Assembly (NCBI RefSeq): GCF_001677475.2 | Contig: NZ_CP015229.1 | Source: Escherichia coli | GTDB lineage: Bacteria; Pseudomonadota; Gammaproteobacteria; Enterobacterales; Enterobacteriaceae | Reading direction: 5' to 3' (one strand) | Length of the DNA: 64,000 nt | Shown: one piece after another, positions 10,812-64,000 of the stretch | Layout: each line of letters starts with the position of its first letter | Position numbering within the stretch: the stretch's first letter is position 1 | Notes under the pieces: model-generated | Database searches by the model: none | Seen by the model: only the letters and a program-made list of their open reading frames with translations | Told to the model about the DNA's origin: nothing | Made by a program: the position numbers and the translations under genes

Positions 10812-11042
10812 TCAACGTTGTCCTGCTTCTGGTTTGCGCGATTTTTGCCAGTAAAAATGCTCGCGCAAACCTTCCGCCGACTCTTCCGCCACAGCACGCA
10901 ATTCATCGCTGTCCGCTTCATGACGTAGCTGATGATCCACATTCTTTACCCACATAAATTCATGTCCTTTGTGCCCTGCCATGAGTTGTCCTGAGAACAG
11001 CGCACACGTTAATAAGACAACCGATAACGCCTTCGTAAACAT
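10812..11042 (-). CDS. yncJ: Secreted small protein YncJ
   Basis: 76 aa with N-terminal signal peptide. Confidence 0.8.
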   Translation of the reverse strand: MFTKALSVVLLTCALFSGQLMAGHKGHEFMWVKNVDHQLRHEADSDELRAVAEESAEGLREHFYWQKSRKPEAGQR

Positions 11043-18980: not shown

Positions 18981-19076
18981 GGATAATATTGCAGATCGTA
19001 AGAGTATGAGAAGATCTTGCGTACTGTCAGAGAGTTGATTTCTCTGACAGTACGTGTTGCGTGCAAAATCACTACA

Positions 19077-22940: not shown

Positions 22941-25031
22941 TTACTCAAATCGCCACGCAATATTCATGCCGACACCATAATTTCGTCCGGGCGCAGGTTC
23001 GTAATATCGCCCGTTTGACTCATTGACAATGACAGAACCAACGTATTCTTTATCGAATAAATTATCGACACGACCAAATAAATCCACGGTTAAATTGTGG
23101 TAATTGTATTTATACCCGGTGAATAAGCCGACGAGAGTATAAGACGGCGCTTTTGCCGTATTTTCATCATCTGCCATAATATCGCCCATATAACGCGCTT
23201 CCGTGCCTGCATACCAGCCATCTTCCGGTACATAACCTATCGACGCAAAGCCCATATTACGGGCGATCCCTGGCATCCGATTACCGTTACAATCCTGTTC
23301 GTTGCAAACATTGCTGCGATAGGTCGCATCAAGCCAGGTCCAGGACGCGTTTACGCGAAAATCTCCCGCGAAACGTTGATCCCATGCCAGTTCAGCGCCT
23401 TGACGACGGGTCTTTCCGGCATTTTTGTAAGTCGTACGCCCACCGCTACTGCTATCGACAACAATTTCATCATCGGTGTCGGTCTGGAACAATGCGAGAC
23501 TAAGCAGCCCATCACCAATACGCGTTTTACTGCCGATCTCAATTGTATCGTTGGTGGATGGTTTTAAACCAAAGTTCATACCGCTTTGCCCATCAGCGCG
23601 ATAAGACAGTTCATTAATCGTCGGCGTTTCAAAACCTCGCCCGGCTGCCAGATAGATATTCCAGGCATCGGTCATTGCATATTTTAACGAACCGGCAGGT
23701 AGCCATTTATGATAACTGTCATCGCCGTTACCCGGAGTAACGTAATGGTCGTTGGAATCAAACCACACGGAGCTGTAGCGCACGCCAGCATCCAGCGACA
23801 GTTTTTCGCTCAGCTGCCACTGCGTCTGTAAATAGGGATCGACGTTCCACATCAGATTGCGTTCGTCGCGACGCAACTCACCTTTTTGCCCGTATTCCGG
23901 CACGCCGCTATTCAGGCGGAAGTTATTGTAGCCCTTGCGGTTTTCACTCATGTTTTCGTAGTTCAGGCCGGTAGTGAACGTGACCGGAACGCCCAGTTCA
24001 CCACGGTGTGTCCAGCGGCTGTCTATTCCCTGGTAATGGCGTTGCAGGGTAATCACGCCGCCCGCATGTGACGGGTTAAGTTGTGGTGCCATGGGTATTG
24101 ACTGGTACTGGGTCGTTTCTCGCTCTCCGGCATACATCATCACACTCATATCATCCCGCGAACTCAGGCTACGTTCATAGCGCAACCCAGCCTGAGTTTG
24201 CTTGATGGTTTTTCGCGTGTCGTACTGTTCTGCACGAGGCGCTTGTTGTGGATTCGCCTTCCATTCTGCTTTTGTTAGACCACCTGGGTCATCTGCTTTG
24301 ATATCCACACTATTGAAAATCAGGCTTAATTTGCTGGCTTCATCAATGCGCACGCCCAGTTTGGCATTGGCTAAATTTTTCTGTGCGCCACTATGGTTAC
24401 GATAACCGTGGGTCGTAAAACGCGTGGTTGAGACGGTGTAATCGACATCGCCAGGCTGTGTGCCGTCGCCCGTTACACCCGTTGCTTTCAGCCCATAGCG
24501 CCAGCTGCCAAAACTGCCGTAGTAACTACTGGCTTCAATAGTTGGTGGCAGTTGTCCGGTCTGGGTGGTGACATTCATTACCCCACCAGACGCGTTGCCA
24601 TACAGGGCAGAGAAGGGGCCACGCAGCACTTCCACATTTTGCACACTGCTTAAATCGATGTTGGATGTTTGCCCTTGCCCGTCGGGCATGGTGGCGGGAA
24701 TACCGTCCACATACAGGCGAATACCGCGAATTCCGTAAGTGGAACGGGAGCCAAATCCGCGAATCGACAGCTGTAAATCTTGCGCATAGTTCTGCCGGTT
24801 TTGTACCTGCAAACCAGGCACGCCGGTCAGTGATTCGGACAAGTTAATGCGCGGTGTTGCCAGGCGCATCTCCTTGCCATCCACCACGCTCACGGCTGCA
24901 GGGGTATCCAGTTCTGAAACCACCTGCGGCGCGGCACTGACAATCATGGTCTGTTCATCAGCGGCAAAAACAACGGGGGAAAGAACAAGCAGTGCGGGCA
25001 AAACGGTCTGTCGAACGAAAACAATCTTCAT
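22941..25031 (-). CDS. yncD: TonB-dependent outer membrane receptor YncD
   Basis: 696 aa; signal peptide; C-terminal aromatic residue (…AWRFE) typical of TonB-dependent barrels. Confidence 0.9.
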   Translation of the reverse strand: MKIVFVRQTVLPALLVLSPVVFAADEQTMIVSAAPQVVSELDTPAAVSVVDGKEMRLATPRINLSESLTGVPGLQVQNRQNYAQDLQLSIRGFGSRSTYGIRGIRLYVDGIPATMPDGQGQTSNIDLSSVQNVEVLRGPFSALYGNASGGVMNVTTQTGQLPPTIEASSYYGSFGSWRYGLKATGVTGDGTQPGDVDYTVSTTRFTTHGYRNHSGAQKNLANAKLGVRIDEASKLSLIFNSVDIKADDPGGLTKAEWKANPQQAPRAEQYDTRKTIKQTQAGLRYERSLSSRDDMSVMMYAGERETTQYQSIPMAPQLNPSHAGGVITLQRHYQGIDSRWTHRGELGVPVTFTTGLNYENMSENRKGYNNFRLNSGVPEYGQKGELRRDERNLMWNVDPYLQTQWQLSEKLSLDAGVRYSSVWFDSNDHYVTPGNGDDSYHKWLPAGSLKYAMTDAWNIYLAAGRGFETPTINELSYRADGQSGMNFGLKPSTNDTIEIGSKTRIGDGLLSLALFQTDTDDEIVVDSSSGGRTTYKNAGKTRRQGAELAWDQRFAGDFRVNASWTWLDATYRSNVCNEQDCNGNRMPGIARNMGFASIGYVPEDGWYAGTEARYMGDIMADDENTAKAPSYTLVGLFTGYKYNYHNLTVDLFGRVDNLFDKEYVGSVIVNESNGRYYEPAPGRNYGVGMNIAWRFE

Positions 25032-25271
25032 GAAAAAAGCCAGGTTAAGAATGGGAAAACACCGTCATGGTAATAAAATTGTAAATTTATGGAAAACGAA
25101 ACGGCACGATACGTTAAGTAATTGAGAAAATTGTAGTCGTAACGGCAAGAAATGCTCCACATTTGAGAAAATAATGATTACCATTCCCATTTATAACAAG
25201 AGCGTAACGATGATTACGCTTAGCGAAGCATTGTGAAGCAGCAAAAATATCGGTCATCAAAGGGAGTCGTC

Positions 25272-26333
25272 ATGCATTTACGTCATCTGTTTTCATCGCG
25301 CCTGCGTGGTTCATTACTGTTAGGTTCATTGCTTGTTGCTTCATCATTCAGTACGCAGGCCGCAGAAGAAATGCTGCGTAAAGCGGTAGGTAAAGGTGCC
25401 TACGAAATGGCTTATAGCCAGCAAGAAAACGCGCTGTGGCTCGCCACTTCGCAAAGCCGCAAACTGGATAAAGGCGGCGTGGTTTATCGTCTTGATCCGG
25501 TTACTCTGGAAGTGACCCAGGCGATCCATAACGATCTCAAGCCGTTTGGTGCCACCATCAATAACACGACTCAGACGTTGTGGTTTGGTAACACCGTAAA
25601 CAGCGCGGTCACGGCGATAGATGCCAAAACTGGCGAGGTGAAAGGCCGTCTGGTGCTGGATGATCGTAAGCGCACGGAAGAGGTGCGCCCGCTGCAACCG
25701 CGTGAGCTGGTGGCAGACGATGCCACGAACACCGTTTACATCAGTGGTATTGGTAAAGAGAGCGTGATTTGGGTCGTTGATGGCGAGAATATCAAACTGA
25801 AAACCGCCATCCAGAATACCGGTAAAATGAGTACCGGTCTGGCGCTGGATAGCAAAGGCAAACGTCTTTACACCACTAACGCTGACGGCGAATTGATTAC
25901 CATCGACAGCGCCGACAATAAAATCCTCAGCCGTAAAAAGCTGCTGGATGACGGCAAAGAGCACTTCTTTATCAACATCAGCCTTGATACGGCCAATCAG
26001 CGTGCATTTATCACCGATTCTAAAGCGGCAGAAGTGTTAGTGGTCGATACCCGTAATGGCAATATTCTGGCGAAGGTTGCGGCACCGGAATCACTGGCTG
26101 TGCTGTTTAACCCAGCACGTAATGAAGCCTACGTAACGCATCGTCAGGCAGGTAAAGTCAGTGTGATTGACGCGAAAAGCTATAAAGTGGTGAAAACGTT
26201 CGATACGCCGACTCATCCGAACAGCCTGGCGCTGTCTGCCGATGGTAAAACGCTGTATGTCAGTGTGAAACAAAAATCCACTAAACAGCAGGAAGCAACC
26301 CAGCCGGATGATGTGATTCGTATTACGCTGTAA
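25272..26333 (+). CDS. yncE: Periplasmic beta-propeller protein YncE
   Basis: 353 aa from ATG 25272 with AGGGAG Shine-Dalgarno; signal peptide. Confidence 0.88.
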   Translation: MHLRHLFSSRLRGSLLLGSLLVASSFSTQAAEEMLRKAVGKGAYEMAYSQQENALWLATSQSRKLDKGGVVYRLDPVTLEVTQAIHNDLKPFGATINNTTQTLWFGNTVNSAVTAIDAKTGEVKGRLVLDDRKRTEEVRPLQPRELVADDATNTVYISGIGKESVIWVVDGENIKLKTAIQNTGKMSTGLALDSKGKRLYTTNADGELITIDSADNKILSRKKLLDDGKEHFFINISLDTANQRAFITDSKAAEVLVVDTRNGNILAKVAAPESLAVLFNPARNEAYVTHRQAGKVSVIDAKSYKVVKTFDTPTHPNSLALSADGKTLYVSVKQKSTKQQEATQPDDVIRITL

Positions 26334-26445
26334 TAGATATGGCGAGGGTGAAAACTGAGAGACGTGCCTGACTTTTATCACGCCGTATCCGGCACCTTCG
26401 TCAGTAATTTGAATTTGCCCGGCACGTAGCCGGGCAATTTTGCAA

Positions 26446-27945
26446 TTAACTCGCCGTTTCAGGTTTAAACACAATTTCCTGTTTTTCTTCATCTTCCTCG
26501 ACGACTGGCGCAGTGCTGTGAATTTCAGCAACGCGTTTGCGCACACCAAACCAGCCTATAACCAGCAGAATACCGATAATCGGCAGCGCCGCGATGGTAT
26601 AAGTCCCGTTCGGGTAATCGAATGCCATCAGCACCAGGACACTCAGTAAAAACAGTAATGTCAGCCAGGAAGTGAAGGGCGCGCCAGGCAGTTTAAAACT
26701 GACATCCGCTGCTTTGCCTTCTTTAATCGCTTTACGCAGGCGCATCTGGCACACGATGATAAACGCCCATGAAGCGATGATTCCCAGCGACGCGAAGTTC
26801 AACACAATCTCAAATACGCGCGACGGCACCAGATAGTTGAGGAATACGCCGACGACATAAACGACCAGTGTCGCCAGAATCCCGGCATACGGCACATGCT
26901 GACGGCTCATTTTCGCCATAAAACTCGGTGCGGAACCGCCCATCGCCATCGAGCGTAGAATACGTCCGGTGCAGTACAGACCTGAGTTCAGGCTGGAGAG
27001 GGCAGCGGTCAGCACCACAATGTTCATAATGCTGCCGATGTACGGCACACCCAGTTTAGAGAAAAACGTCACGAACGGACTTTGCCCAGCCTGATACGCG
27101 CTCCACGGCAATAACATAACCAGCAACACCACGGAGCCGACGTAAAACAGGCCAATACGCCAAATCACACTGTTAATCGCTTTAGGCACCATGGTCTGCG
27201 GATCTTTACATTCTCCGGCAGCTGTACCCACCATTTCAATGGAGGCAAAAGCAAACACTACGCCCTGAATCAACACCAGAGCAGGAAGCAAACCGTGGGG
27301 GAAGAAGCCGCCATTATCGGTGATTAAATGAAAGCCAGTGGTGTTGCCATCCAGCGGCTGACCACTACCGAGGAACACTGTACCCACGACCAAAAAGGTC
27401 ACAATGGCGAGCACTTTAATAAGCGCAAACCAGAACTCCATCTCCGCAAACCATTTCACACCAATCATATTCATGGTGCCAACGATGGTAAGTGCAGCGA
27501 GCGCAAAGACCCACTGCGGCACGCCGCCAAACGCCCCCCAGTAATGCATATACAGCGCTACAGCGGTGATATCGACAATCCCCGTCATCGCCCAGTTAAT
27601 GAAGTACATCCAGCCTGCAACGTAAGCGGCTTTCTCTCCTAAAAACTCACGGGCATAAGAGACAAAGCTGCCACTGGAAGGGCGATGTAACACCAGCTCA
27701 CCCAATGCACGCAGAATAAAAAACGAAAACAGGCCACATATTAAATAAACCAGTGCCAGCGCAGGACCCGCCATTTGCAGTCGGGCTCCTGCACCTAAAA
27801 ACAAGCCGGTGCCAATCGCGCCGCCAATGGCGATCATCTGCACCTGGCGATTGCCCATCGCTTTGTGATACCCCTCTTCGTGGGCATTAAGCCAGCGGCG
27901 TTTCGCGGCGTGTTGATCTGGAGTGTCGGTGTCGTGTTTACTCAT
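26446..27945 (-). CDS. ansP: L-asparagine permease (APC family)
   Basis: 499 aa from ATG (complement of 27943-27945); polytopic amino acid permease sequence. Confidence 0.92.
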   Translation of the reverse strand: MSKHDTDTPDQHAAKRRWLNAHEEGYHKAMGNRQVQMIAIGGAIGTGLFLGAGARLQMAGPALALVYLICGLFSFFILRALGELVLHRPSSGSFVSYAREFLGEKAAYVAGWMYFINWAMTGIVDITAVALYMHYWGAFGGVPQWVFALAALTIVGTMNMIGVKWFAEMEFWFALIKVLAIVTFLVVGTVFLGSGQPLDGNTTGFHLITDNGGFFPHGLLPALVLIQGVVFAFASIEMVGTAAGECKDPQTMVPKAINSVIWRIGLFYVGSVVLLVMLLPWSAYQAGQSPFVTFFSKLGVPYIGSIMNIVVLTAALSSLNSGLYCTGRILRSMAMGGSAPSFMAKMSRQHVPYAGILATLVVYVVGVFLNYLVPSRVFEIVLNFASLGIIASWAFIIVCQMRLRKAIKEGKAADVSFKLPGAPFTSWLTLLFLLSVLVLMAFDYPNGTYTIAALPIIGILLVIGWFGVRKRVAEIHSTAPVVEEDEEKQEIVFKPETAS

Positions 27946-28295
27946 TGCTCTCCCTGATTGCTTTAATGAAAAAGTCATATAAGTTGCCATGAACAATGTT
28001 TATTCATCCTGGCGATGACAAGATTCACCATTATTCTTTATGGGTATAACTGTCGGCGCAGAATCCTACCTTTTATCGTGTAACGATGCAAAATAATCCC
28101 GCTATAAATATGAGGGGATAAAGGCGGCCGGCAACAAAATAGCAACCTGATGAAATTTTGACGGAAACAACCACTATTGGTTTGATGATGCCCGACGGCA
28201 GTCCTACTCTTGCGCCACTCGTTCGTCGCTCTGAACGCCAGTGGTTGCAGTGGACACTGGCGTGGTTGGCTCATTGAATAGTGAGGTGCTAGCAC

Positions 28296-28472
28296 ATGAC
28301 GGGTTTCAGGGGTAATACACCAAATACCAATACAATTGCTGATTATATGAGCCAATTGCCGATGTTACAGAAAAGGCTAAAAAATGTAAGAGGCATGCAG
28401 GATGATAAACGCGCTATTGCCCAACAGGGGTTTCTGGAATTAGTCCTGTTCCATGGTCATTACAACTCTTAA
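28296..28472 (+). CDS. Hypothetical small protein (58 aa)
   Basis: ATG 28296 preceded by GAGGTG about 8 nt upstream; no recognisable family; not in ORF track (under 60 aa). Confidence 0.25.
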   Translation: MTGFRGNTPNTNTIADYMSQLPMLQKRLKNVRGMQDDKRAIAQQGFLELVLFHGHYNS

Positions 28473-28882
28473 AACATTACTTCAATATAATTAATGTGTA
28501 TATCATTCCCGATATTAATTTATGAAGTGAATTTGATATATTCCGAATTCTTAATTTACATTACTAATGTATGGGGCATAACGTTAAGATTGCTATGTGC
28601 AGATTAACATATCAGGGTGGGGCGGTAGCGTTTACAGATATTAATCAATTGATGAGAATTATGTTAACTGCGTAATCATTTGCATCGATTATTGATATTG
28701 AAGATAGATTAATAAAAATGCTGAGAATTAATGTTAAAAAATCATAACGGGAAACGTTGATAACTTGCTTTGATTTCATTTTCTATGAAGATGATGTCAT
28801 CAATACTGTATAAAGTGGAAATGTTGAACATCAAAGAGCGTTTGTGTTTTATCTGAAAGATATTATTTCCAGGGGGAAGGAT

Positions 28883-29013
28883 ATGTCATTAAGGAGAATG
28901 ACATCTGGTGAATTAACATTGGCCAGATCGATTTTTGAGAATACAATTGATTATAGCAAGGTATGGATCCACAATGAAAAATATTTGCCTGGTCAAGGGG
29001 AAAGAACAGCGAT
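28883..29013 (+). pseudogene. 5' portion of a host ORF interrupted by the prophage left end
   Basis: ATG 28883 with strong GGGGGAAGGA Shine-Dalgarno; the reading frame runs straight across the Mu-type end at 29014 into phage sequence, so the track ORF 28844..29083 is a host-phage fusion. Confidence 0.45.
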
Positions 29014-29040
29014 TGTATTGATTCACTTGAAGTACGAAAA
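29014..29040 (+). repeat. Prophage left terminal transposase-binding site (L1-like)
   Basis: Begins with 5'-TG; sequence matches the recalled Mu attL terminus. Confidence 0.75.
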
Positions 29041-29352
29041 AAACCGGGAGGACATTGGATTATTCGGGATTTGGCGGGATTAGATTTAGTGGGGCTTGCA
29101 AGCCTGTAGGACAGATTTTAGCCGTTACATCTTGAAACGCGAAAGATTGTTGGAAACAGCTTTTGATTCATTAAAGACACGAAAAGCAATTACTTCACGC
29201 ATCATTTCAAGTACAGCTTCAAAAATGCTTCAAAAACGGTAACAACCAGGCTTTCGGCAAGTGATGTGTGTCAAAAACAATCATCACTGTTTGGGTATCT
29301 TACATATGTAATTACCTAGAGTGAAGTTTATGTCTTAGCTATTACCTGGTTG

Positions 29353-29877
29353 TTATACAGCTTTCTTTACATCGTTTTCTCTTACAGGGAAATTATGTTC
29401 TTTGCCTTCATACTGAGACAAAATCTCTCTCACTTTTTCAGGTGGTAATGCCTGAAGAGTTTGCAGGGTTTTCTGTTGATCCACAGTAATCCCTAATGCC
29501 TCTAATGCCTTATCTTTACTGACAATTGTAGGCATAAGTCCTTTAATCCCTGCTACACGAATGATCTCCACAGCTGCGGCCTGCTCATCTGGTGTTAAGA
29601 AGCTCATTGCATAAATTAGCCTCTCATCAACTGTATGGGCGATTGATGTATGCACTGGTTTATCAGAAAGTGAGGCTCCTTTAATGGCCCTACGTGTTTC
29701 TTCTGGCAGACTGTTGATGTGATACTCATAAGCGACACCTTTCCCACCGTGACGCTGACGTTTTACCCAATCTTCCGCCACAGCTTTCCTGGTAATGTTA
29801 GTCGCCAACTTTGGTACACCAGGCATCCCTTCCAGCTCTTTCGCATTAAACCATTCTTTGATTTCAAAAGACATCAT
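29353..29877 (-). CDS. c: Transposable-phage repressor (Mu c / D108 repressor family)
   Basis: 174 aa, divergent from ner-A-B; N-terminal about 60 aa are roughly 50 percent identical to the N-terminus of the adjacent transposase. Confidence 0.8.
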   Translation of the reverse strand: MMSFEIKEWFNAKELEGMPGVPKLATNITRKAVAEDWVKRQRHGGKGVAYEYHINSLPEETRRAIKGASLSDKPVHTSIAHTVDERLIYAMSFLTPDEQAAAVEIIRVAGIKGLMPTIVSKDKALEALGITVDQQKTLQTLQALPPEKVREILSQYEGKEHNFPVRENDVKKAV

Positions 29878-30062
29878 TTAAAATCCTAGCGATTTCAATA
29901 GAGACAAAATAAATTCATATAAAAATCATGCCGTTATATGAAATCATGGTAAATACTTTCAAATCTCTATTGATTTGAAAATGATTCCACACTACATTGC
30001 ACGATATGCCGTGAGCTACTTTATAGCGTAGCTCACGGGGGAATCTGAAAGGATTACATGAA
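29878..30062. promoter_or_regulatory. Early operator/promoter region between divergent c and ner
   Basis: AT-rich 185-bp divergent intergenic region with several inverted repeats (for example TCAAAT..ATTTGA at about 29958-29978). Confidence 0.6.
30009..30038. promoter_or_regulatory. Perfect inverted repeat CCGTGAGCTAC-N8-GTAGCTCACGG; candidate Ner operator
   Basis: 11-bp arms at 30009-30019 and 30028-30038 with AT-rich 8-bp spacer, 25 bp upstream of ner. Confidence 0.5.
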
Positions 30063-30284
30063 ATGCATATGAATAAAAGAACTAACCGCCAAGATTGGCA
30101 CAGAGCTGACATCGTTGCAGAGCTACGAAAACGCAATATGTCACTAGCTGAATTGGGAAGATCTAATCATCTTTCGTCTTCAACATTAAAAAATGCTTTG
30201 GATAAGAGATATCCGAAAGCGGAGAAAATCATTGCAGATGCACTGGGAATGACACCGCAAGATATTTGGCCGTCTCGATACTAG
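30063..30284 (+). CDS. ner: Ner-family DNA-binding protein (early-operon negative regulator)
   Basis: 73 aa; motifs [14 protein letters not shown] and IWPSRY shared with Mu Ner and E. coli Nlp. Confidence 0.85.
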
Positions 30285-30291
30285 GTGCGCT

Positions 30292-32280
30292 ATGAAAGAA
30301 TGGTATACAGCAAAAGAGTTGCTCGGTTTGGCAGGTTTACCAAAGCAAGCCACTAACATTACACGTAAGGCACAAAGAGAAGGCTGGGAGTTCAGGCAGG
30401 TTGCAGGGACTAAAGGTGTATCATTTGAATTCAATATCAAATCATTCCCTGTCGCATTACGTGCTGAAATTCTGTTGCAACAAGGGAGAATTGAAACAAG
30501 CCAGGGGTATTTTGAAATCGCCCGCCCCACGCTGGAAGCCCACGATTACGATCGCGGGGCACTGTGGAGCAAATGGGATAAAGCCAGCGATTCCCAGCGC
30601 AGACTTGCTGAAAAATGGTTGCCTGCAGTTCAGGCCGCAGACGAAATGCTGAACCAGGGGATTTCAACAAAAACGGCTTTTGCGACCGTTGCAGGACATT
30701 ACCAGGTCAGCGCATCCACTTTGCGAGACAAGTATTACCAGGTACAGAAGTTTGCGAAGCCTGACTGGGCGGCTGCACTTGTTGATGGACGTGGTGCATC
30801 TCGTCGCAATGTTCACAAAAGTGAATTTGACGAGGATGCCTGGCAGTTTCTGATTGCAGATTATCTGCGACCGGAAAAACCCGCCTTCCGCAAATGTTAT
30901 GAGCGTCTGGAACTGGCAGCCCGCGAGCATGGCTGGAGTATTCCCTCCCGTGCCACGGCCTTTCGCCGGATTCAGCAACTGGACGAGGCAATGGTTGTTG
31001 CCTGTCGTGAAGGTGAACATGCACTGATGCATCTGATACCGGCACAGCAGCGAACTGTGGAACACCTGGACGCCATGCAGTGGATCAACGGCGACGGTTA
31101 TCTGCATAACGTCTTTGTACGCTGGTTTAACGGTGATGTGATCCGCCCGAAAACATGGTTCTGGCAGGATGTGAAAACCCGAAAAATTCTGGGCTGGCGC
31201 TGCGATGTGAGCGAGAACATTGATTCAATTCGCCTCTCGTTCATGGATGTGGTGACACGCTACGGCATCCCGGAAGATTTTCACATCACCATTGATAACA
31301 CCCGTGGGGCAGCGAATAAATGGCTGACGGGGGGCGCGCCCAATCGTTACCGCTTTAAGGTGAAAGAGGACGATCCAAAGGGACTGTTTTTACTGATGGG
31401 CGCGAAAATGCACTGGACAAGCGTTGTTGCCGGTAAAGGCTGGGGCCAGGCAAAACCTGTTGAACGTGCTTTCGGTGTTGGTGGGCTTGAGGAATACGTT
31501 GATAAGCATCCGGCACTGGCTGGCGCATATACGGGGCCAAATCCGCAGGCAAAACCTGATAACTATGGCGACCGTGCTGTTGATGCAGAGCTGTTTCTGA
31601 AAACCCTTGCTGAAGGTGTGGCGATGTTCAATGCCAGAACAGGCCGTGAAACAGAAATGTGCGGGGGCAAACTCTCGTTTGATGATGTTTTCGAGCGTGA
31701 ATACGCCAGAACGATTGTGCGTAAGCCAACCGAAGAACAAAAACGGATGCTGTTACTGCCTGCCGAAGCGGTGAACGTTTCACGCAAAGGCGAGTTTACG
31801 CTTAAAGTTGGCGGCTCCCTTAAAGGCGCGAAAAACGTTTATTACAACATGGCGTTAATGAATGCAGGCGTGAAAAAAGTTGTGGTCAGGTTTGATCCGC
31901 AGCAGCTACACAGCACAGTTTATTGCTACACCCTGGACGGTCGGTTTATCTGTGAAGCGGAATGTCTGGCACCTGTTGCATTTAATGATGCTGCGGCAGG
32001 CCGTGAATATCGCCGCCGCCAGAAACAACTGAAATCTGCAACTAAAGCAGCCATTAAGGCGCAGAAACAAATGGACGCGCTGGAAGTTGCTGAACTGCTG
32101 CCGCAGATAGCCGAACCAGCAGCACCAGAATCAAGGGTTGTTGGTATTTTCCGGCCTGTGGGTAACACAGTACGGGTTAAATATCGCACCCCCGATGATA
32201 AATACGAACCCGCTCGTGATGAATATCTGAATCAGTCACTGGATATTCTGGAACAGAAAAGACGTAAAAAAGCCATTTAA
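30292..32280 (+). CDS. A: DDE transposase (MuA family)
   Basis: 662 aa; Mu-transposase-like sequence throughout; N-terminal domain shared with the repressor. Confidence 0.93.
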
Positions 32281-32318: not shown

Positions 32319-33278
32319 ATGAATATTTCCGATATTCGCGCAGGACTGCGCACGCTTGTAGACAATGGAGAAACCACGCTGACACGCATCGCCAGTGAAT
32401 CAGGCGTGGCCCTGAGCACAGTCAGTGGTTTTGTGAATGATAAATATAACGGCAACATGGAATCAGTCGGGCGCACACTGGAACGCTGGCTGGAAAACTA
32501 TCACCGCGCAGAAGAACTGCCGGAACCCCCGCGTTTTGTGGAAACTGCAACAGCCCGTCAAATCTGGACAAGTATGCGTTTTGCTAATCTGACCGGAACC
32601 ATTGCTGTTATCTGTGGCAATCCAGGAGTGGGTAAAAGCGAAGCAGCCCGTGAATTTTGTCGCACTAATAATAATGTCTGGATGATCACCATCGCGCCAT
32701 CCCGTGCCAGTACGCTGGAATGTCTGACTGAACTTGCCGAAGAGTTGGGAATGAATAATGCACCCTGTCGCAAAGGGCCGCTTTCCCGTAATCTGCGTCG
32801 CCGCCTGAAAGGGACGCAGGGACTGGTCATTGTTGACGAAGCTGATCACCTTGACACCGAAGCGCTGGAAGAGCTCCGTCTGTTACAGGAGTCCGCCTGT
32901 ATTGGTCTGGTTCTGATGGGGAATCACCGTGTTTATTCAAATATGACCGCTAATGGCGACAGAACAATTGAGTTTGCCCGTCTGTTTTCCCGTATTGCAA
33001 AGCGCACAGCAATTAATAAAACCAAAGAAGACGATGTAAACGCAATTGCGGATGCCTGGCAGATTACCGGGAAAAATGAACGGGAATTATTACAGCAGAT
33101 TGCACAAACGCCTGGTGCGCTCCGCATTATGAATCAAACGCTGCGCCTTGCTGTTATGAATGCCTTCGGTAAAGGCGAACGTGTTAATGAGGATTATCTG
33201 CGTGAGGCTTACAAAGAGTTAGACCAGGACGTTGATGTTTCGATGCTGCTGGGTGTGCAAGGGGATGCTGAATCATGA
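32319..33278 (+). CDS. B: Transposition ATPase / target DNA activator (MuB family)
   Basis: 319 aa; Walker A GNPGVGKS; immediately downstream of A. Confidence 0.9.
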
Positions 33279-47200: not shown

Positions 47201-47236
47201 GCAGTTAAAAGGCGCTGCGAATGCCCTTTTAACTGC
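47201..47236 (+). terminator. Stem-loop after the major capsid gene (terminator or attenuator candidate)
   Basis: GCAGTTAAAAGG...CCCTTTTAACTGC inverted repeat 25 bp after the capsid stop, followed by the palindrome GCCTTTTAAAAGGC. Confidence 0.4.
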
Positions 47237-47254
47237 CTTTTAAAAGGCAGAGTC

Positions 47255-51580: not shown

Positions 51581-51666
51581 CCTGTCTTCGAGATTCAGCA
51601 TTCAGTACCTGGAACAGCTGCCCCTGCGGCAGCTGTTCCGCCTGATAAAGCAACTGGAGAAACAGC

Positions 51667-62839: not shown

Positions 62840-62863
62840 GTCATCATTTTGTATAGTTTATAA

Positions 62864-62887
62864 CGATCGATACAATCGTATCGATCG
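62864..62887. promoter_or_regulatory. GATC-containing inverted repeat upstream of com/mom; candidate Dam-methylation-sensitive operator
   Basis: CGATCGATAC-AATC-GTATCGATCG; two GATC sites at 62865-62868 and 62883-62886, about 75-100 bp upstream of com. Confidence 0.5.
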
Positions 62888-62961
62888 TCAGTTTGCATCA
62901 TCTGTGATTAAATACCCTGGCCCTCAGGGCTATCGTATCTGGTTAATACACAGGTGGGATC

Positions 62962-63999: not shown

Positions 64000-64000
64000 A

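Follow-up and report, generated by a model that had tools for sequence, protein, structure and literature searches.

A D108-type palindrome upstream of ner as the probable Ner operator of a Mu-like prophage in Escherichia coli

Phages D108 and Mu provide the closest described counterparts of the locus that is reported here. The Ner operator of D108 is presumed to consist of two 11-bp inverted repeats that are separated by an AT-rich 8-bp spacer, whereas the site of Mu Ner presumably comprises 12-bp repeats of the form ANPyTAPuCTAAGT with a 6-bp spacer. The D108 palindrome has presumably been known as an operator since the 1980s, and we take the palindrome described below to be identical to the footprinted site. 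A similar layout is assumed for Mu, in which transcription from the early promoter (Pe) starts at 1028 and the Ner dyad occupies 1029-1058. The mechanism considered below reportedly goes back to work on the Ner proteins of D108 and Mu by Tolias and DuBow in 1985, by Kukolj and co-workers in 1989, and by Benevides and co-workers in 1994. The D108 Ner operator has been studied experimentally, and a "61-base-pair operator" is attested in the title of a reference.

A further relative is EnrR (PDB 7f9h), which shares the helix-turn-helix fold family of Ner and was its best match in the PDB (E=1.5e-22). EnrR is nucleoid-associated and Ner-like, and in its solved complex with DNA two small molecules are placed side by side (PMC9023278). 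It differs from Ner in that it is encoded on the chromosome or on an island, regulates AT-rich DNA globally, and recognizes a short CTATAG-type site, and is not a phage switch acting on an 11-N8-11 operator (PMC9023278).

The palindrome in relation to D108 and Mu

A 64,000-nucleotide stretch of Escherichia coli DNA (the window) contained the perfect inverted repeat CCGTGAGCTAC-N8-GTAGCTCACGG at 30009-30038, which had been claimed in an earlier note and was found again both by reading the sequence and by a repeat finder. The two arms of 11 nt were 100% complementary and 8 nt apart, and each was unique within the 64-kb window. The symmetry did not extend outward, with G30008 and G30039 remaining unpaired. 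A gap of 24 nt separated the palindrome from the ATG of ner at 30063, which fits the distance of 25 bp given previously; the start codon agreed with the D108 annotation, and a ribosome-binding sequence (AAAGGA) was located in the gap at 30048-30053. The features of the region are listed in Table 1. Judged from sequence comparison, the palindrome is very probably the ner operator of a Mu-like prophage with D108 immunity, and would thus represent an ordinary control element that has already been described.

Table 1. Coordinates of the palindrome and of neighboring genes and control features in the window
Feature	Position	Strand	Remark
Left 11-bp arm, CCGTGAGCTAC	30009..30019	.	Equals D108 996-1006; invariant in 9 D108-type sequences
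AT-rich 8-bp spacer, TTTATAGC	30020..30027	.	A/T at 6/8 positions
Right 11-bp arm, GTAGCTCACGG	30028..30038	.	Equals D108 1015-1025; invariant in 9 D108-type sequences
ner, 73-aa helix-turn-helix repressor, putative ligand of the palindrome	30063..30284	+	ORF; 100% identical to D108 Ner (73/73 residues), 53% to Mu Ner
c repressor gene, 174 aa, D108 type, divergent from ner	29353..29877	-	ORF; 98.3% identical to D108 c, 29% to Mu c
Transposase A	30292-32280	+	ORF
B	32319-33278	+	ORF
Left end of the Mu-like prophage (attL), TGTATTGATTCACTTGAAGTACGAAAA	29014..29040	+	Base 29014 equals D108 base 1; with 29010-30300 as query, the alignment to D108 begins at base 5
Predicted early promoter Pe: -35 TTGATT 29970-29975, 17-nt spacer, -10 TACATT 29993-29998	29970..29998	+	Predicted by a permissive hexamer scan, 8/12

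The palindrome resembled the D108 ner operator in its 30-bp sequence, its position (24 nt before ner), and an identical Ner, and no difference was observed in the element itself, whereas the late half of the present prophage belongs to another Mu-like lineage. Window positions 29978-30500 were 100% identical to D108 (GQ357916) 965-1487, a segment that included the palindrome, the complete ner gene, and ~70 codons from the start of A. Alignment with the left end of D108 placed the same 30-mer (30/30 bases) at D108 996-1025, the homologous position before ner, in agreement with the D108-like Ner site proposed in the earlier note. Over the first 1487 bases of D108, 16 substitutions and no indels were counted, and all 16 fell within the first 964 bases. 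A megablast of 29010-30300 against a phage collection returned D108 at 98.8% over 1287 bases and gave no match to Mu. The earlier note had further assigned the repressor to the D108 type because of its 174 aa; the assignment stands by sequence (98.3% identity to D108 c, 3 substitutions, vs. 29% to Mu c), but the length is not diagnostic, since the RefSeq Mu c also has 174 aa. The c protein matched the Pfam family HTH_Tnp_Mu_1 (Mu DNA-binding domain), and Ner matched HTH_35 (E=1.2e-28), with EnrR (7f9h) and Mu Ner (1neq/1ner) as the nearest solved structures. The operator marks the immunity type of the prophage as D108, which is heteroimmune to Mu, and pins its lysis-lysogeny control element; the element is already known and carries little weight beyond annotation.

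Mu was found to carry another dyad at the equivalent place, in line with the different site that the earlier note had named for Mu Ner. This dyad, AGCTAGCTAAGT-TTTTAC-ACTTAGTTAAAT at Mu 1029-1058, resembles the present one in its role and in its placement, with the c-ner promoter region on one side and ner on the other, and contains a TAGCT-like core. It differs in the sequence of its arms, in their length (12 vs. 11 bp), in its spacer (6 vs. 8 bp), and in its ligand, as Mu Ner is only 53% identical. In a three-way alignment, the window followed D108 through the palindrome and shared only a short ACTTTATAG with Mu, whose dyad was aligned with a different sequence in the window. The D108 arms were absent from Mu's left end, and a Mu-type Ner site (12-bp ANPyTAPuCTAAGT repeats with a 6-bp spacer) was absent upstream of ner in the window. 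We take the dyad at Mu 1029-1058 to be the site assumed for Mu Ner and the palindrome to be that assumed for D108 Ner, and both fit; because the 12-N6-12 and 11-N8-11 patterns each landed on a real dyad at the expected place, some confidence in these patterns is warranted.

Perfect inverted repeats whose arms measured at least 11 bp and whose spacers did not exceed 20 were present at 6 distinct places in the window, compared with a mean of 0.27 in 100 mononucleotide shuffles. When up to 2 mismatches were allowed, the core GAGCTAC-N8-GTAGCTC occurred once in the window against an expectation of 0.11. As far as the sequences indicate, conservation is a stronger argument against chance than these repeat counts. 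The other five perfect inverted repeats, which likewise combine short spacers with arms of 11 bp or more, were located at 10831-10871, 19020-19057 (with 14-bp arms), 47201-47239, 51611-51642, and 62863-62888.

Conservation of the arms among relatives

Nine D108-type c-ner intergenic regions were compared: that of the window, those of the phages D108 and SfMu, and those of four E. coli prophages and two IMG/VR contigs. The arms were invariant at all 22 positions, whereas 50 of 163 positions varied elsewhere in the intergenic region (Fisher p=6e-4), and the arms are, on this alignment, more constrained than the rest of the region. The spacer varied at 3/8 positions and read TTTGCAGA in the SfMu type, with unchanged arms. 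The SfMu-type operator, which was found in Shigella phage SfMu and in 5 E. coli prophages (e.g., in strain RM11911), has the same 11-bp arms and position as the one described here, and its Ner differs from the window Ner in one residue (T7A). Its spacer, TTTGCAGA instead of TTTATAGC, gives the palindrome 12-bp arms, and the c-proximal half of its intergenic region has strongly diverged from the window. Among 5426 complete E. coli genomes, 44 carried the c-ner region, and the exact 30-mer was present in 39 of these 44, in one copy each; the c-ner region of the window was not found at 100% identity in any complete E. coli genome of the collection. Taken together with the identity of the host flank given below, this makes it probable that the DNA comes from an Escherichia strain or lineage outside the collection.

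More distant loci were retrieved through the Ner protein and not through the repeat, which introduces no bias towards the repeat. Four loci with a Ner 61-81% identical to that of the window (L008, L019, L032, and L018) kept GCTAC-N8-GTAGC at 21-32 nt before ner, and their dyads read CGACGAGCTAC-N8-GTAGCTTATGG in L008, GCACGGGCTAC-N8-GTAGCTCACGG in L019, TTATGAGCTAC-N8-GTAGCTCATAA in L032, and CTTATAGCTAC-N8-GTAGCTATCTA in L018. The inner five pairs (GCTAC/GTAGC) did not vary over the whole range of Ner identity, from 61% to 100%. The outer pairs had changed symmetrically in L032 and L018, and asymmetrically, with the pairing broken, in L008 and L019. Two-sided changes occurred at five pairs, a value that was reached by 4 of 500 shuffles. 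Such symmetric compensatory changes fit an RNA stem and a symmetric protein site equally well. The fixed spacing, the invariant core, the variable spacer, and the asymmetry at the edges together look like a site at which a sequence-specific protein binds in two copies.

A scan of IMG/VR for the 16-base core TGAGCTAC-N8-GTAGCTCA returned 8 contigs, and all four of those with an AT-rich spacer adjoined a ner homologue. The other four were set aside; they lacked ner and looked like chance matches, one of them resembling a tRNA D-arm. A third operator type, TAGCTAGC-N14-GCTAGCTA and its variants, was observed about 20-60 nt upstream of ner in the IMG/VR loci L010-L017, whose Ner homologues are ~70% identical to the window Ner and have a recognition helix that resembles the D108 group. 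This operator type resembles the Mu dyad more than it does that of D108. A single half-site common to all Ner homologues, including these loci and the Mu types, was considered and rejected, as only a TAGCT-like core was common and the registers were ambiguous.

In Mu-like phages, the interval between c and ner is densely occupied by repressor operators, the transposition enhancer, and a site for IHF. In the window, short repeats were clustered in the c-proximal half of the interval (29858-29981), including GATTTCAA-type direct repeats at 29860 and 29891, TTGATTTCAAAA / TTGATTTGAAAA repeats, an IHF-like match (AATCATGCCGTTA) at 29924, and a dyad (TTTCAAATC-N6-GATTTGAAA) at 29957-29980, which shares bases with the predicted -35 of Pe. 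Candidates for c-repressor operators, an enhancer, and an IHF site are thereby provided. In an interval crowded with other dyads and an IHF-like match, the palindrome at 30009-30038 might serve a factor other than Ner (a host protein, the c repressor, or transposase A), or it might have arisen by chance and lack a function. Either is extremely improbable, because the c-proximal motifs (of the GATTTCAA and TTGATTT types) are unrelated to the arms, the arms strictly co-occur with Ner homologues, and the dyad type follows the Ner type (D108 or Mu), while the invariant arms, together with the shuffles, exclude chance. An 80-nt inverted repeat with 73% complementarity was also observed between the 5' ends of c and A (29783-29862 / 30292-30371); it reflects the known homology of the N-terminal DNA-binding domains of the repressor and the transposase, which are coded on opposite strands.

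Early control by Ner and the hairpin alternative

If the palindrome is the ner operator, as is preferred here, one small helix-turn-helix molecule of Ner would occupy each 11-bp arm, and two molecules would bind cooperatively across the AT-rich spacer, by analogy with the Ner proteins of D108 and Mu. The operator would lie directly downstream of the predicted Pe start, at about +4 to +33, in the stretch from which leftward transcription of c proceeds. Bound Ner would then lower early (ner-A-B) transcription, which amounts to negative autoregulation, and would lower the transcription of c as well, so that the phage would be held on the lytic path while transposase would be limited. Both the binding of Ner and the positions of the promoter are inferred in this scheme.

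The candidate Pe, TTGATT-17-TACATT, is weak (8/12) and ends 10 nt before the palindrome, with a predicted transcript start near 30005. A strict sigma-70 scan of 29800-30150 detected no promoter, and a permissive scan gave many 8/12 matches, of which only TTGATT-17-TACATT was backed by conservation. The alignment columns of both its hexamers were conserved, and this held for the divergent L008 (TTGAAT / TATTAT) as well. A leftward promoter-like sequence inside the operator, TTCAGA-18-TATAAA (9/12), was not a conserved feature, its -10 being lost in SfMu and L008.

The earlier note had allowed that the structure could act as an RNA hairpin in the early leader. The palindrome would in that case form a stem-loop at the 5' end of the ner-A-B transcript, affecting for example message stability or ner translation, rather than a protein site. 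The hairpin is energetically possible: a folding energy of -20.8 kcal/mol was obtained for the stem alone (11 bp, 8-nt loop) and of -24.2 kcal/mol for the leader 30003-30075 (z=-4.45 vs. shuffles). The pairing is also kept by two-sided changes in some homologues. A stem near the 5' end is known to protect E. coli mRNAs, and with a Pe start near 30005 the transcript would have 4-5 nt ahead of the stem. That start is itself predicted, however, and conservation points elsewhere: the sequence is conserved and not the stability, with stem energies that range from -8 to -23 kcal/mol among homologues around a fixed core, and L008 and L019 have lost the pairing at the outer positions. Furthermore, a palindromic operator would give a hairpin as a by-product anyway. 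An RNA stem-loop in place of a protein site is therefore very unlikely, and the hairpin of the early leader might be a by-product of the operator with a possible secondary role. A Rho-independent terminator was also rejected, since no T-run comes after the stem, the sequence there being GGGGAATCTG on the + strand and CATATCGTGC on the - strand, and since the terminator scan did not list it. A broader proposal holds that the palindrome is more than an operator, in that a 5'-terminal hairpin ~4 nt from the start would stabilize the ner-A-B message or gate its translation and act together with Ner on the DNA, and, as a separate point, that c, the operators, ner, and the N-terminal end of A would form a D108 immunity cassette that moves as a unit between otherwise unrelated Mu-like lineages; this proposal is considered unlikely.

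Prophage backbone and flanking region

The D108-type early region had been proposed to be joined to a Mu-type backbone, and this second part of the proposal failed, as DNA likeness to Mu and D108 was limited to the first ~8.4 kb and com-mom, and the late genes had only 25-50% amino-acid identity. DNA identity to Mu and D108 was 92% over 1-4.5 kb, 84% to 6.7 kb, and 73-75% from there up to ~8.4 kb. Beyond about 8.4 kb, megablast gave no match to Mu or D108 except at com-mom near the right end, where similarity returned at 89%. The late ORFs (window 37500-63000) followed the Mu gene order and shared 25-50% amino-acid identity with Mu and D108. No ORF matched gin, and no invertible G segment was detected in the window. 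Membership in Muvirus mu (the Mu/D108 backbone) was thus rejected, given that the late genes were not near-identical and that a gin match was absent. The right end of the prophage was not found in the window, which stops at 64000, 207 bp past the stop codon of mom.

The nearest phage record for the late (head) region was Klebsiella phage Kp4866-3, at 70% nucleotide identity, and the same late module was present in 55 complete E. coli genomes. In STEC383, STEC1575, UMNF18, and JNE21-009, the late module was located 10-17 kb from a D108-type c-ner region, and both therefore belong to the same prophage. By these sequence comparisons, the prophage is a D108-immunity member of a different Mu-like lineage that is common in E. 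coli, and not a D108 immunity region on a Mu chassis. The D108-type c-ner cassette in E. coli mostly travels with a late-gene module that is distant from Mu and D108, which may help phage taxonomists, and the cassette and its distant late module illustrate the modular exchange of immunity regions among transposable phages.

An ORF of 79 aa (28844-29083) spans the left end of the prophage at 29014, so that the Mu-like insertion appears to have interrupted a host gene adjacent to yncE and an Rhs-related gene. The host flank at 25000-29013 (ansP, yncE, and pqqU region) matched E. coli chromosomes at up to 97.7%.
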